DNA of 40,362 nucleotides from a phage. Under the pieces are notes generated by a model, which was not told the origin of the DNA, ran no database searches, and saw nothing but the letters and a program-made list of their open reading frames with translations. Shown here in pieces: positions 676 through 5,510 of this stretch. Numbering within the stretch: the first letter of the stretch is position 1; each line of letters begins with the position of its first letter. The stretch lies in the sequence record OZ418233.1; one strand, written 5' to 3'. The position numbers and the translations under genes were made by a program.

Positions 676-2147
676 CAGATACAGCGTTATCTCCTGAAGA
701 GCAGTTGATCGAGGATATTGCAGGGTTCACTCACGATCCGCTTGGCTATGCCCTCTATGCGTTCCCGTGGGGGGAAGATGGGACTGAACTGGCACATGCC
801 ACCGGTCCACGTAAGTGGCAGGCTGATGCGTTCCGAGAGATACGTGATCACCTGCAGAATCCAGAGACGCGCTATCAGCCGCTTATGCTGGCACGCGCTT
901 CTGGTCACGGTATTGGTAAATCCGCATTCATCTCAATGCTGATCAACTGGGGCATGTCCACTTGCGAGGATTGTAAGGTCGTGGTGACCGCCAACACCGA
1001 CAACCAGCTACGAACGAAGACCTGGCCGGAAATTATCAAGTGGTCGAACCTTGCTATCACGAAAGACTGGTTCACCTGCACCGCTACCGCGATGTACAGC
1101 AATGATCCTGGGCACGACAAGCGGTGGCGCGCTGACGCAATCCCCTGGTCTGAGCACAACACTGAGGCGTTCGCCGGACTACACAACGAGCGCAAACGCA
1201 TCATCGTGGTATTCGATGAAGCGTCGAACATTGCGGATCTGGTGTGGGAAGTTGCTGAGGGTGCGCTTACGGACGAAGACACTGAGATTATCTGGGTGGC
1301 GTTCGGAAACCCTACACGTAACACCGGGCGTTTCCGCGAATGTTTCCGCAAATATAAACACCGCTGGAAAACTGCGCAGATTGACAGCCGAACGGTGGAA
1401 GGCACTAACAAACAGCAGTTGCAGAAATGGGTTGATGACTACGGGGAAGACAGCGACTTCGTTAAAATCCGTGTGCGCGGCATATTCCCTGATGCATCTG
1501 AATTGCAGTTTATCCCTACCGGTCTTACTGATGAGGCAATGAAACGGGTGGTGACCGCTGCGCAGGTGGCGCATGCTCCGGTGATAATCGGTGTTGACCC
1601 GGCATATTCAGGCGTTGATGACGCGGTGATATACCTGCGGCAGGGGCTACACAGTAAGGTGCTGTGGACTGGCAACAAGACTACCGACGATCTGATTATG
1701 GCGAAGCGTATCGCTGACTTTGAAGACCAGTATCAGGCTGACGCGGTGTTCATCGACTTCGGTTACGGAACCGGTTTGAAGTCAATCGGTGACGGCTGGG
1801 GTCGTACATGGCAACTTGTTCCGTTCGGTGGCGCGTCTACTGACCCGCAGATGCTCAACAAGCGTGGGGAGATGTTCAACTCATGCAAGACATGGCTGAG
1901 GCTGGGCGGCATGCTGGATGACCAGGAAACTGCAGACGACCTGTCGGCGGCAGAGTACAAAGTTCGAGTGGACGGTAAAGTCGTTATCGAACCGAAGGAA
2001 GATATCAAGGAGCGGCTTGGGCGTTCTCCGGGTAAAGGCGATGCGCTACTGCTGACGTTTGCTTTCCCTGTGTCGAAGCGTCTGCGAATTCCTGGGCAGC
2101 AGAACCAGCAAGGCAAGGCCATCACAGATTATGACCCGTATGCTTAA
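672..2147 (+). CDS. terminase large subunit
   Basis: 491-aa ORF directly downstream of and translationally coupled to the small terminase; P-loop-like segment GHGIGKS; size and position typical of large terminase. Confidence 0.8.
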   Translation: MTDTALSPEEQLIEDIAGFTHDPLGYALYAFPWGEDGTELAHATGPRKWQADAFREIRDHLQNPETRYQPLMLARASGHGIGKSAFISMLINWGMSTCEDCKVVVTANTDNQLRTKTWPEIIKWSNLAITKDWFTCTATAMYSNDPGHDKRWRADAIPWSEHNTEAFAGLHNERKRIIVVFDEASNIADLVWEVAEGALTDEDTEIIWVAFGNPTRNTGRFRECFRKYKHRWKTAQIDSRTVEGTNKQQLQKWVDDYGEDSDFVKIRVRGIFPDASELQFIPTGLTDEAMKRVVTAAQVAHAPVIIGVDPAYSGVDDAVIYLRQGLHSKVLWTGNKTTDDLIMAKRIADFEDQYQADAVFIDFGYGTGLKSIGDGWGRTWQLVPFGGASTDPQMLNKRGEMFNSCKTWLRLGGMLDDQETADDLSAAEYKVRVDGKVVIEPKEDIKERLGRSPGKGDALLLTFAFPVSKRLRIPGQQNQQGKAITDYDPYA

Positions 2148-2237
2148 TCCGCTGGTGGGGATAATGTCGTTGATATCCTCTGATGAGGATAAAACAAAGC
2201 CAGCTCATCGGCTGGCTGTTTGTGACATGTCACGGTG

Positions 2238-2609
2238 TTATTGCTCGCTTAGCTTCTGCTTCAGCAAGTAACCTTCGAGCATCCAGATTTTGTTTACAGC
2301 ATTCTGCCGGGCAATCTTCCGACCAATTTCTGCATCAAAGTTTTCCGGGCTTGCACAGGCGCTCTCTCCGGTGACGGTGAAGCCGTTGCGCAGCACCAGA
2401 ACGCAGAACGTCAGCAGAGAAAGTGATTCGTGCGGCTGGTAGTTTACCTCTCCGCCAGTATGTTTCGCTTTTATGGCTACGCCAAAGACACCATCTTCTG
2501 CTGTGAAATATGCCTCCTGAGCAATAATGCTCTCGATATGGTCTGGCGTAACGCGCGGCGCGGCTAAACCTTTAGCCTGAATTTCAGATTCAATGTCTTT
2601 GTCACTCAT
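2238..2609 (-). CDS. hypothetical phage protein (123 aa)
   Basis: Clean minus-strand ORF with RBS-like AAGGTGAGA upstream of ATG at 2609; possibly a widespread small phage family, not verified. Confidence 0.45.
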   Translation of the reverse strand: MSDKDIESEIQAKGLAAPRVTPDHIESIIAQEAYFTAEDGVFGVAIKAKHTGGEVNYQPHESLSLLTFCVLVLRNGFTVTGESACASPENFDAEIGRKIARQNAVNKIWMLEGYLLKQKLSEQ

Positions 2610-2625
2610 AGTCTAATCTCACCTT

Positions 2626-2650
2626 AAAAAAATGCCCGGCGAACCGGGCG
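2626..2650 (-). terminator. intrinsic terminator downstream of tRNA (minus strand)
   Basis: Plus strand reads AAAAAAA + GCCCGGCGAACCGGGC; on the minus strand this is a GC-rich hairpin followed by a U-run. Confidence 0.6.
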
Positions 2651-2812
2651 AACTGGAAGCAATGAGTTATGCCTTCCGTGGCTGTACTGGTTTACAGCAT
2701 GAAGTCATCGCAATGGCGTCCTGCTGTAAAAAGGGCGGTGATAGTCCTTCAAGGGAAACCATCACCGCCAAGCACCTGGAACTTCTGGCATCACGGTCCT
2801 TAGGCGTGATTC

Positions 2813-2889
2813 TGGCGTGGCATGCAGGATTCGAACCTGCGACCAACCGCTTAGAAGGCGGTTGCTCTGTCCGACTGAGCTAATGCCAC
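2813..2889 (-). tRNA. tRNA-Arg (anticodon TCT)
   Basis: Reverse complement reads GTGGCAT-TA-GCTC-AGTCGGACA-GAGC-A-ACCGC-CTTCTAA-GCGGT-TGGTC-GCAGG-TTCGAAT-CCTGC-ATGCCAC-G-CCA: 7-bp acceptor stem, D, anticodon and T arms all pair, anticodon loop CT-TCT-AA, encoded CCA. Confidence 0.85.
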
Positions 2890-3211
2890 AACGCTGAGAG
2901 CACTTAGCCTGTTAAGGCGCCACACTTTGTCGCGGCTCCATAAATGCTCTCATCGTTGTACCCTCGTCTCTTCCGAGGCGTCACACCGAATAGCCGGGAT
3001 GGTGAATCCCCGTGCGCGGAATAAAACCGCTCGACTTGCACATTCCGGCTACCTGGTTCGTTTGCCCGAGCAAGGGAGGGTGCCCCTTAAACGTATCCAG
3101 ACCGCTATCGTCGCATGTGCCATACGCCGTACTGCTCAAAATAAAAGCTCACTCCACCTGTTCAATTTAACGACAAGCCAGTCAGGTTAGTAACCGGAAT
3201 GAGCTCTTTAG

Positions 3212-3226
3212 TTACCTGAAAGGTAA
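3212..3226. promoter_or_regulatory. palindromic operator-like motif TTACC-TGAAA-GGTAA
   Basis: Perfect TTACC-N5-GGTAA inverted repeat, about 90 bp upstream of the first virion gene; one of 12 such sites in the window. Confidence 0.55.
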
Positions 3227-3316
3227 TAATTAACGCGTTAAATGTCAACCTTCTACGATAAATAAAACATATGTGGTTAAATTGGTAATAATTTAATTGC
3301 GTACGGAGTCATTGAT

Positions 3317-3523
3317 ATGTGCATGGGTAGCTCACCATCAGTGCCTGCAACACCAGAAGTTCAGGCAGCACCACAGGAGCAGGATGCCGCCGTTGTTGAT
3401 GCCCGCGACGAAGAAACACGTCGCCGTCGCGCTGCTGCTGGTCGTAGTTCTACGCTGCTTACCGGTTCTCAGGGCGACACATCAACCGCTAATACCAGCG
3501 GTAAAACGCTGCTTGGTCAGTAA
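3317..3523 (+). CDS. small virion protein, T7 gp6.7-like (68 aa)
   Basis: Begins Met-Cys like T7 gp6.7 as I recall it; sits immediately before the portal gene; RBS GGAGT with a translation initiation region nearly identical to the portal's. Confidence 0.45.
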   Translation: MCMGSSPSVPATPEVQAAPQEQDAAVVDARDEETRRRRAAAGRSSTLLTGSQGDTSTANTSGKTLLGQ

Positions 3524-3537
3524 CCGGAGTCATTGAA

Positions 3538-5217
3538 ATGGCGGAAACAACTAAAGAGCGATTGAACAAACAGTTCGCACAACTTGAAAGCGAGCGTCAG
3601 TCGTTCGAGCCGCACTGGCGCGAGTTGAGTGATTACATCAACCCGCGTGGTTCCCGCTTTCTGACTTCTGAGGTCAACCGTAACGATCGACGCAATACAC
3701 GCATTATTGATTCGACCGGGACTATGGCGGCGCGCACTCTCGCCAGCGGCATGATGTCAGGCATCACAAGCCCCGCGCGTCCGTGGTTTCGCCTGGCTAC
3801 GCCAGATCCTGAAATGATGGATTATGGCCCTGTTAAGTTGTGGCTTGAGGCGGTGCAGAACCGCATGAACGATATGTTCAATAAGTCGAATCTCTACCAG
3901 TCTCTTCCGCAGTTATACGGAAGCCTCGGCACATACAGCACTGGTGCAATGGCGGTGCTGGAGGATGACGAGGACATCATTCGCACAATGCCATTCCCGA
4001 TAGGCAGTTACTACCTGGCTAACTCACCTCGTGGCAGTGTGGACACCTGTTTTCGCAAGTTCTCTATGACTGTTCGTCAGCTTGTTCAGGAGTTCGGACT
4101 AAATAACGTCAGCGAATCCGTAAAAAGCATGTGGGAAAGCGGCGCCTACGAGAAGTGGATTGACGTGATGCATTCGGTTTACCCGAACATTGACCGCGAT
4201 ACATCGAAGCTGGATAGCAAGAACAAGCCATTCAAATCGGTTTATTACGAGGTTGGTGGCGATAACGACAAGTTGTTGCGTGAGTCCGGATTCGATGAGT
4301 TCCCAATTATGGCTCCGCGCTGGGAAGTTAACGGCGAAGATGTTTATGGATCATCATGCCCGGGTATGCTGGCGCTTGGACCTGTTAAGGCACTGCAGCT
4401 TCTCCAGAAGCGCAAGTCGCAGTTGATTGATAAAGCCACCAATCCGCCGATGGTTGCTCCGACTTCCCTCAAGAATCAGCGTGCCTCCCTTCTTCCTGGC
4501 GACATCACGTATATCGATCAGATTACTGGTCAGGATGGTTTCAGGCCTGCTTATCTGGTTAACCCCAGTACAGCAGATTTGGTGGCAGACATTCAGGACA
4601 CTCGTCAAATCATTAACAGCGCCTACTTTGTCGATCTGTTCATGATGTTGCAGAACATCAATACCCGCTCGATGCCTGTTGAAGCGGTGATCGAAATGAA
4701 AGAAGAAAAACTTCTGATGTTGGGGCCGGTTCTGGAGCGTCTGAACGACGAATGTCTTAATCCTCTCATTGACCGCGCTTTCTCGATGATGGTGCGTAAA
4801 AACATGCTGCCGCCACCGCCTGACGCGATGGAAGGTATGCCCCTGAAGGTCGAATACATTTCTGTCATGGCTCAGGCGCAGAAGTCTATCGGCCTGTCCA
4901 GTCTGGCGTCCACGGTTAACTTCATTGGTCAACTTGCGCAAGCGAAACCAGAAGCTCTCGACAAACTCAACGTTGATCAGGCGATCGATGCATTCGCTGA
5001 TATGTCCGGAGTGTCTCCAACCGTCATTGTTCCGCAGGAACAGGTTGAGCAGGCTCGCCAGCAACGGGCACAGCAACAACAGCAGCAACAAATGATGGCG
5101 ATGGGGATGGCGGCGGCACAGGGTGCCAAGACGCTAAGCGAAGCTAAAACTTCGGATCCGAGTGTTTTGTCAGCTATGGCGAATGCAGTTAGTGGTCAGG
5201 GTGGGCAATCACAATGA
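3538..5217 (+). CDS. portal (head-to-tail connector) protein, T7 gp8-like
   Basis: 559-aa ORF with Q-rich C-terminus (QQQQQQQMMAMGMAAAQG...) as in T7-type connectors; gene order portal-scaffold-capsid. Confidence 0.85.
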   Translation: MAETTKERLNKQFAQLESERQSFEPHWRELSDYINPRGSRFLTSEVNRNDRRNTRIIDSTGTMAARTLASGMMSGITSPARPWFRLATPDPEMMDYGPVKLWLEAVQNRMNDMFNKSNLYQSLPQLYGSLGTYSTGAMAVLEDDEDIIRTMPFPIGSYYLANSPRGSVDTCFRKFSMTVRQLVQEFGLNNVSESVKSMWESGAYEKWIDVMHSVYPNIDRDTSKLDSKNKPFKSVYYEVGGDNDKLLRESGFDEFPIMAPRWEVNGEDVYGSSCPGMLALGPVKALQLLQKRKSQLIDKATNPPMVAPTSLKNQRASLLPGDITYIDQITGQDGFRPAYLVNPSTADLVADIQDTRQIINSAYFVDLFMMLQNINTRSMPVEAVIEMKEEKLLMLGPVLERLNDECLNPLIDRAFSMMVRKNMLPPPPDAMEGMPLKVEYISVMAQAQKSIGLSSLASTVNFIGQLAQAKPEALDKLNVDQAIDAFADMSGVSPTVIVPQEQVEQARQQRAQQQQQQQMMAMGMAAAQGAKTLSEAKTSDPSVLSAMANAVSGQGGQSQ

Positions 5218-5510
5218 CAGATTACGAAGACGATCAACTGAAAGAAGAAAACGCCCGCAAGCAACGTGACATGGCACAGCGTGAAATTGATGACATTCGC
5301 TTTGTCATGAGCAGTGAACAGGGGCGTCGCGTTGTCTGGTCGGTGCTGGAGAAAGGCCGGGTGTTTTCCGCTATCTCTCCGATGGATGCTATGGCAATGG
5401 CATTTAATGAGGGGCAACGCAATCTGGCGCTGGAACTGTTTCAGCGCGTTATGGCGCATTGCCCTGAACAGTATTTGAAGATGGCCAAAGAGGCCAGTGA
5501 ACAGGAGTGA
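5214..5510 (+). CDS. hypothetical head-module protein (98 aa)
   Basis: ATG overlaps portal stop (ATGA); charged, helical-looking sequence between portal and scaffold genes. Confidence 0.45.
   Translation: MTDYEDDQLKEENARKQRDMAQREIDDIRFVMSSEQGRRVVWSVLEKGRVFSAISPMDAMAMAFNEGQRNLALELFQRVMAHCPEQYLKMAKEASEQE

Follow-up and report, generated by a model that had tools for sequence, protein, structure and literature searches.

The canonical start region of a gene in a polycistronic phage late operon consists of a Shine-Dalgarno (SD) sequence complementary to the 3' end of 16S rRNA, a spacer and an AUG, and in translationally coupled phage structural genes the second such site lies close to the upstream stop codon. 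Multi-target translational operators, such as the T4 RegA sites, overlap several start regions. Here we analyze two start regions in the phage sequence OZ418233.1 (40,362 nucleotides; this whole stretch is termed the window), one belonging to a small gene homologous to epsilon15 gp3 (gp3) and the other to the portal gene directly downstream. A previous sequence-only reading had noticed that the two regions are almost identical, and had proposed that the duplication either equalizes translation of two virion proteins or reflects a local duplication event. We found the latter to be the best explanation, and comparison with relatives suggests that 14 nt of the gp3 leader were copied ectopically, once, in the common ancestor of phiV10-like and Tyrion-like phages. 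We assign a probability of about 0.72 to the reading that the gp3-portal spacer was overwritten by a single copy of the gp3 leader and has since been under ordinary constraint, its identity to that leader having no demonstrated function.

Both start regions resemble the canonical ones in having GGAG, an 8-nt spacer and AUG, and the second resembles those of coupled structural genes in lying within 14 nt of the upstream stop codon. They differ from canonical SD regions in that the adjacent genes have the spacer as well as the SD sequence in common, which is unusual and was found in one clade only. As in operators of the T4 RegA type, a related short sequence covers the ribosome-binding sites of more than one gene. 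Unlike such operators there are two copies and no candidate repressor, the sequence is not conserved in relatives, and mutations in a single copy are tolerated. The locus also resembles the product of short-patch ectopic conversion or of a template-switch micro-duplication, with a 14-nt tract apparently replaced from a locus 221 bp away, once, and then altered by point mutation. It differs from short-patch conversion in that the event is deduced here only from its phylogenetic distribution and that the flanking homology is minimal (GTA...ATG).

The Start Regions of gp3 and the Portal Gene

The 16-mers CGGAGTCATTGAtATG and CGGAGTCATTGAaATG are identical at 15 positions and are located where the sequence-only reading had placed them (Table 1). 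The sole mismatch is the base immediately 5' of the ATG (3316 T vs. 3537 A), and each 16-mer is made up of a C, GGAG, the 8-nt spacer TCATTGA(T/A) and ATG. Copy 2 starts two bases past the gp3 stop codon TAA (3521-3523) and, together with one extra C, spans the entire 14-nt intercistronic gap up to the portal ATG, a distance within the limit of about 20 nt used for coupled genes.

Table 1. Positions in the window of the features discussed in the text.
Feature	Position	Strand	Remarks
tRNA-Arg(TCT) gene	2813-2889	-	ARAGORN; Rfam 73 bits
gp3 leader, conserved non-coding	3212..3303	+	Block present in every lineage; the sequence upstream of the block varies
Palindrome TTACCTGAAAGGTAA	3212-3226		Opens the leader block; conserved in all lineages examined
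Copy 1, gp3 translation initiation region	3304..3319	+	CGGAG; SD GGAG 3305-3308, spacer TCATTGAT 3309-3316, ATG 3317-3319
gp3 homologue (epsilon15 gp3 / phiV10p06), 68 amino acids	3317..3523	+	phrog_831
Whole gp3-portal intergenic spacer, 14 nt, CCGGAGTCATTGAA	3524..3537	+	Probable derived copy of gp3 positions -14..-1
Copy 2, portal translation initiation region	3525..3540	+	CGGAG; SD 3526-3529, spacer TCATTGAA 3530-3537, ATG 3538-3540
Portal (head-to-tail connector), T7 gp8 type, 559 amino acids	3538..5217	+	Pfam PF12236, E = 1.5e-187; phrog_332

The reading of both copies as translation initiation regions, each belonging to one of two neighboring genes, was borne out. Each has a purine-rich SD sequence within 5-10 nt upstream of the start, namely GGAG at 8 nt from the ATG. 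Ribosome-binding sites are annotated at both positions in the record of Enterobacter phage Tyrion, and GGAG or a near variant is retained at both sites in nearly all of the 49 haplotypes described below. The portal start is supported by a conserved N-terminus, MAET.., in relatives. The gp3 start codon marks the N-terminus of a real gene, as Met1-Cys2 is invariant in 18 diverse homologues and synonymous codon differences far outnumber non-synonymous ones (30:2 vs. Tyrion and 25:8 vs. epsilon15); gp3 is under purifying selection.

The repeat is short and unaccompanied. A search of both strands with one mismatch allowed located the 11-mer GGAGTCATTGA at exactly two places in the window, and no third copy or complementary (antisense) partner of the repeat was found on either strand of the 40-kb genome at up to one mismatch. 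A larger duplication of the 5' end of gp3 or of the portal gene was ruled out; the similarity ends with the 16-mer and does not extend into either coding sequence. In the region 2100-3700 Rfam families were limited to tRNA, and a scan of the same region for sigma-70 promoters gave no match, which says nothing about a late promoter. The predicted RNA accessibility of both start regions in seven lineages ranged from 0.27 to 0.65 and varied with flank length and context, and neither folding nor accessibility differed systematically between the lineages with the repeat and the others among these seven.

Comparison With Chance Expectation

The phiV10 sequence at the repeat locus is identical to that of the window, and we compared positions -13 to -1 of all 55 annotated coding sequence starts of phiV10 with each other (1485 pairs). 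The gp3/portal pair was the best of all, with 12 of 13 positions identical. The runner-up (11/13) consists of two copies of the pure SD consensus GGAGGTGAGT, whereas the gp3/portal match lies in the spacer. Extrapolation from the tail of the distribution gave, as a rough estimate of our own, 0.15 such pairs per genome and 0.006 among adjacent genes. When gp3 leaders were paired with portal leaders across 35 haplotypes outside the clade that carries the repeat, none of the 609 cross-pairings exceeded 9/13; the real gp3/portal pairs of these haplotypes reached at most 6/13, compared to 10-12/13 for pairs within the clade. A probability of 5e-8 for the match, obtained with a position weight matrix, was not relied on, because portal-type SD sequences are shifted by one nucleotide, which deflates the value. 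The repeat exceeds chance.

Distribution in Relatives and Direction of Copying

By megablast, Escherichia phages phiV10, PAS61, ZX5, and TL-2011b are 98-99% identical to positions 3000-5300 of the window, Tyrion is 83% identical, and Salmonella phages epsilon15 and SPN1S and a Klebsiella phage are about 77-78% identical. These identities place the window in the genus Uetakevirus (epsilon15-like podoviruses) as a phiV10-like member. About 320 loci were collected from GenBank phages, from IMG/VR contigs (searched with portal proteins and two junction patterns) and from GTDB with one genome per species, and these were reduced to 49 distinct combinations (haplotypes) of gp3 leader and portal leader. 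Loci are referred to by L numbers. The first protein scans of IMG/VR yielded only contigs that were 93-100% identical, and more divergent loci were obtained from the GTDB scan and with the two junction DNA patterns, which were designed to leave out the phiV10 type.

Among the 49 haplotypes the shared spacer was found only in the phiV10-like and Tyrion-like ones. The gp3 and portal leaders are ACGGAGTCATTGAT and CCGGAGTCATTGAA, respectively, in the phiV10-like contigs (about 150) and ACGGAGTCATTGTT and ACGGAGTCATTGTC in the Tyrion-like contigs. The corresponding pairs are ACGGAGCTATTGCT and CGGAGTAGGCAGAG in epsilon15, SPN1S, and 65FD, GAGGTTATCGCT and CGGAGCGCGCAGAG in BUCT554 and L100, and TGGAGTATCGAT and CTGGAGCGCGGAAG in a Klebsiella phage. 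The remaining lineages retain gp3 and the portal gene, mostly with the 14-nt gap too, and the sequence common to their two leaders is limited to (C)GGAG. Prophages of Citrobacter, Kluyvera, Scandinavium, Superficieibacter, Pseudescherichia, Buttiauxella, Pantoea, Providencia, Proteus, and Morganella carry no repeat. Comparison of the leaders in related phages was the check named in the sequence-only reading, which was to fall if relatives showed no conservation of the shared sequence. This is largely what was found, since epsilon15, SPN1S, 65FD, BUCT554, Klebsiella phages and at least 15 prophage lineages keep both genes without the repeat. The sequences that do carry it are monophyletic in a neighbor-joining tree of the first 900 nt of the portal gene, and that they form one clade indicates a single origin. 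The repeat is lineage-specific and no conserved feature of this phage group.

Of the two sites, it is the portal spacer that changed. Between phiV10 and epsilon15 the gp3 leaders are orthologous and differ at 3 of 14 positions, compared to 10 of 14 for the portal spacers. The gp3 leaders are AT-rich in all lineages, those of the epsilon15-like lineages being orthologous with the form ACGGAG(C/T)(T/C)ATTG.., while portal spacers outside the clade are GC-rich (CGGAGCGCGCAGAG, CGGAGTAGGCAGAG, CGGAGACCTGAGAG, CTGGAGCGCGGAAG). Two loci with portal genes in another clade, L288 and L217, have the gp3 leaders CGGAGTCATTGAA and CGGAGTCAGTCAA and an unrelated portal spacer, CGGAGCGCGCA... In Tyrion the full 14-nt spacer matches gp3 positions -14 to -1 at 13 of 14 positions. 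Copy 1, the gp3 leader, is most likely the ancestral source: the AT-rich motif is native at gp3 and portal spacers elsewhere are GC-rich, which makes a single replacement of the spacer by a gp3 leader copy the most likely course.

Such an event may be pictured as follows. The first start region opens gp3, the first cistron after a conserved operator/leader region. The second would support de novo initiation and, probably, re-initiation of ribosomes that have finished gp3. In the common ancestor of the phiV10-like phages of E. coli and the Tyrion-like phages of Enterobacter, the spacer would have been replaced by the 14 nt preceding the gp3 start, by short-patch ectopic conversion or by template switching, possibly aided by the GTA...ATG microhomology. 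Each copy would then have evolved separately under the moderate purifying selection common to any start region.

Drift and Constraint of the Two Copies

At least nine changes in one copy were not mirrored in the other (L016, L053, L175, L165, L109, L201, L203, and L110). The portal copy alone was changed in L016, L053, L175, L109, L201, and L203, with GGAG to GGGG among the changes, and the gp3 copy alone in L165, while the pair in L110 was down to 7/13. Across lineages no mirrored substitutions indicative of concerted evolution were found, position -2 being the sole possible case, and ongoing gene conversion between the copies found no support. As a separate observation, a T-to-G change in the portal leader of two phiV10-like IMG/VR contigs (L016 and L148) gives GGAGTCATGGAAATG, which places a new in-frame ATG two codons before the portal start. 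This ATG is probably unused, since it is located only 2 nt past the SD sequence.

Start regions in these phages, spacers included, are markedly constrained in sequence and far better conserved than silent sites. Between phiV10 (L008) and Tyrion (L324) the four-fold sites differ by 53-64%, which is near saturation, with portal proteins about 95% identical. The gp3 leaders differ at 1 and the portal leaders at 3 of 14 positions. In the phiV10-like population, polymorphism affected 3 of 28 leader sites vs. 108 of 299 four-fold sites. As a control we took the remaining leaders of this operon that are truly intergenic; these differ between phiV10 and Tyrion at 0 of 14 (gp8-like), 0 of 14 (gp10), 2 of 14 (major capsid protein) and 2 of 14 positions (gp9). 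The portal copy was thus the least conserved of the intergenic start regions compared, and the gp3 and portal leaders were not conserved beyond comparable start regions. This control removed selective retention of the repeat, which the slower change of leaders relative to four-fold sites could have suggested. Recent horizontal exchange between phiV10-like and Tyrion-like phages was also rejected as the cause of retention, since gp3, the gene between the copies, differs at 64% of its silent sites.

Alternative Explanations

The proposal that the duplication equalizes translation did not hold up: relatives lack the repeat, the copies drift independently, and their conservation is ordinary. Had the identity been selected, equal initiation rates would fix the ratio of gp3 to portal (e.g., 12:12), as would suit a small portal-decorating protein. 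T7 gp6.7, a small Met-Cys protein, is a core protein present in 12 copies whose N-terminal loop wraps around the dodecameric portal barrel and which is ejected at infection (PMC11784390). gp3 is likewise small, has an invariant Met-Cys and always lies directly upstream of a T7-type portal gene, and the repeat survived a divergence at which four-fold sites are saturated. We nevertheless regard equalization as unlikely. Most relatives that have both genes lack the repeat, a change in one copy has no compensating change in its partner, unrelated start regions are retained at least as well, and homology of gp3 to gp6.7 is unsupported. Furthermore, the contexts differ, a 5' leader in one case and an intercistronic site with possible coupling in the other, with different downstream codons; as predicted accessibility depends on context (0.33-0.60), an identical SD sequence and spacer would not yield equal output. 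A little less probable still is the fuller version, in which the copied leader was fixed as a near-1:1 tie between portal and gp3, and gp3 occurs in 12 copies in the core, bound to the portal barrel as a functional analogue of gp6.7. If true, the repeat would be a rare natural case of stoichiometry tuning by ribosome-binding-site duplication. About as improbable as that version is chance or convergence, by which two A/U-rich spacers behind the same SD sequence became near-identical without copying. CGGAG(T) is common to both sites elsewhere (epsilon15; L092 portal, CGGAGT..), the L092 portal spacer CGGAGTCTGAAGAG has GGAGTC and TGAA, so that the motif may be partly ancestral at the portal site, and the phiV10 runner-up pair reached its score through the SD consensus alone. 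Against this, the match extends to 7 of 8 positions of the non-SD spacer, the 609 cross-lineage pairings stayed below it, the portal spacer of phiV10 and Tyrion is a compositional outlier among portal spacers and of the gp3 type instead, and in Tyrion the match to the gp3 leader covers the whole 14-nt spacer.

Two further explanations appear highly improbable. A trans-acting translational regulator, protein or small RNA, could recognize GGAGUCAUUGA as a common operator and control gp3 and portal together, which would agree with two copies placed exactly over the ribosome-binding sites of consecutive genes and varying less than silent sites. It agrees poorly with the number of copies being just two, with the lack of a complementary sequence in the 40-kb genome and of Rfam matches other than tRNA nearby, with the absence of the motif from most relatives, with the tolerance of SD (GGAG to GGGG) and spacer mutations in one copy alone, and with a level of conservation typical of all start regions. 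Alternatively, gp3 could be a mobile or deletable cassette, excised or inserted precisely by recombination between the direct repeats of 13-15 nt, which upon excision would leave the portal gene behind the gp3 leader. The repeats are 221 bp apart and flank exactly one gene, a recombinase of the RecE/RecT type is encoded (phiV10p37), and mosaic boundaries are nearby. The predicted deletion junction, in which the gp3 leader is fused to the portal ATG (TTGCGTACGGAGTCATTGAnATGGCGG), was however found in no IMG/VR contig, and every lineage examined, whether it has the repeat or not, retains a gp3 that is under purifying selection.

Some observations also weigh against a single copying event followed by ordinary constraint. 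A conversion tract of 14 nt with only 3 nt of flanking microhomology is unusual. Position -2 is A in both leaders of the phiV10-like phages vs. T in both leaders of Tyrion, which on its own looks like co-variation; this was contradicted by L110 (A/T) and amounts to one ambiguous event. Finally, neither leader varies as much as silent sites do; both must be under some selection, part of which may favor similarity. The clade restriction, the direction of copying, the drift of the copies and their ordinary conservation indicate that the repeat is a real but ordinary evolutionary footprint, with no sign of a special function. The locus offers a clean, datable case in which the intercistronic spacer of a phage structural operon was replaced by a very short (14-nt) ectopic copy. 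A striking identity of start regions can be a neutral historical footprint and no regulatory device, and a comparative check is needed before a function is assigned to such repeats.

The gp3 Family and Its Relation to T7 gp6.7

The sequence-only reading had named the small gene gp6.7-like, and this label was not supported. The gp3 of the window matched no Pfam family at E <= 1, none of the 18 family members matched DUF5476, the family of T7 gp6.7, at E <= 10, and the two proteins are assigned to different PHROG families (phrog_831 for gp3, phrog_1391 for gp6.7). hhalign gave a probability of 3.2% over 10 aligned columns. Pfam, PHROG, and hhalign thus gave no support for homology between gp3 and gp6.7. 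What the proteins have in common is Met-Cys and a few N-terminal residues. The N-termini of gp3 (MCMGSSPSVP), of L101 (MCGFSKPKINTPPP) and of T7 gp6.7 (MCFSPKIKTPK) all begin with Met-Cys followed by a Pro/Lys-rich stretch.

gp3 thus resembles gp6.7 in being small with an N-terminal Met-Cys and a Pro/Lys/Ser-rich stretch, and the phage resembles T7 in having a T7-type portal (PF12236) and internal core proteins. gp3 differs in its distinct and highly conserved C-terminal half, where the alignment of the 18 homologues, extending to prophages in Sphingopyxis and in metagenome-assembled genomes (MAGs) of Rhodospirillales, shows RRRRAAAG, STLLTG and the C-terminal GKTLLGQ, and in the location of its gene directly upstream of the portal gene, unlike T7 gene 6.7. 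Because gp6.7 is a 12-copy core protein of the portal barrel, a functional analogy of gp3 to gp6.7 is a possibility.

All GenBank homologues of gp3 are annotated as hypothetical proteins. A literature search that did not include the epsilon15 genome paper found no paper discussing gp3, and the family profile gave only spurious matches against PDB sequences. phrog_831 is without a Pfam family or structure, and, from Enterobacterales to alphaproteobacterial MAGs, its members immediately precede T7-type portal genes. A by-product of this work is therefore a widespread, uncharacterized family of small Met-Cys proteins that always adjoin T7-type portal genes.

The portal protein matched the Head-tail_con family over its full length (624 bits vs. 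a cut-off of 27; profile positions 2-488 of 489, from portal residue 7). The gap of 14 nt between gp3 and the portal gene is found in most lineages, and a few relatives in Klebsiella, Proteus, Pantoea, Providencia, Morganella, and Buttiauxella differ. In Klebsiella phage Kp4865-1 (L007 3304-3316) and in K. pneumoniae ATCC 13883 (L103) the portal ATG is located 3 nt past the gp3 stop codon (TAATCCATG), without a separate SD spacer. In a Sphingopyxis MAG (L106 1498-1503) the gp3 stop and the portal start overlap (TAATG).

Genomic Surroundings

The genes follow in the order terS, terL, one leftward gene and tRNA-Arg; after about 400 nt without coding sequence come the gp3 open reading frame (ORF) and the portal gene, and then the Bbp19-like, scaffold/protease, and major capsid genes. 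Homology to all other Uetakevirus lineages begins at the leader block, with the megablast alignments of Tyrion and epsilon15 starting at about 3209-3212. The palindrome that opens the block is the counterpart of a site annotated as repressor/IHF binding in the epsilon15 record, which suggests repressor control of the gp3-portal operon or of the divergent tRNA operon.

Close to this mosaic boundary, about 10 nt upstream of it, GGTTAGTAACCGGA (3185-3198) matches GGTCAGTAACCGGA (3515-3528) at 13 of 14 positions. The latter runs from the end of gp3, stop codon included, into the portal leader, and the former was found in phiV10-like loci only. The match could be due to chance (about 0.2 expected in 1.6 kb) or be a recombination scar.

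The ORF of the phiV10 hypothetical protein PhiV10p04 (2632-2883, plus strand) overlaps the tRNA-Arg gene on the opposite strand and is probably spurious. A segment of about 96 nt (3036-3131) is 84-86% identical to phages P1 and P7, and its counterpart in P1 falls between ban and trnI (tRNA-Ile), where nothing is annotated. In P1 and P7 alike the segment is located directly 5' of a tRNA gene on the strand of that tRNA. It has no Rfam match and may be a conserved leader of a tRNA operon or a processed spacer.

Klebsiella phage ST11-OXA245phi3.2 (L005 3801-4124) and Salmonella phage 65FD (L006 3790-4335) have an extra ORF between the Bbp19-like and scaffold/protease genes. No such ORF is present in the window, and one of the two is annotated, implausibly, as phenylalanyl-tRNA synthetase subunit beta.

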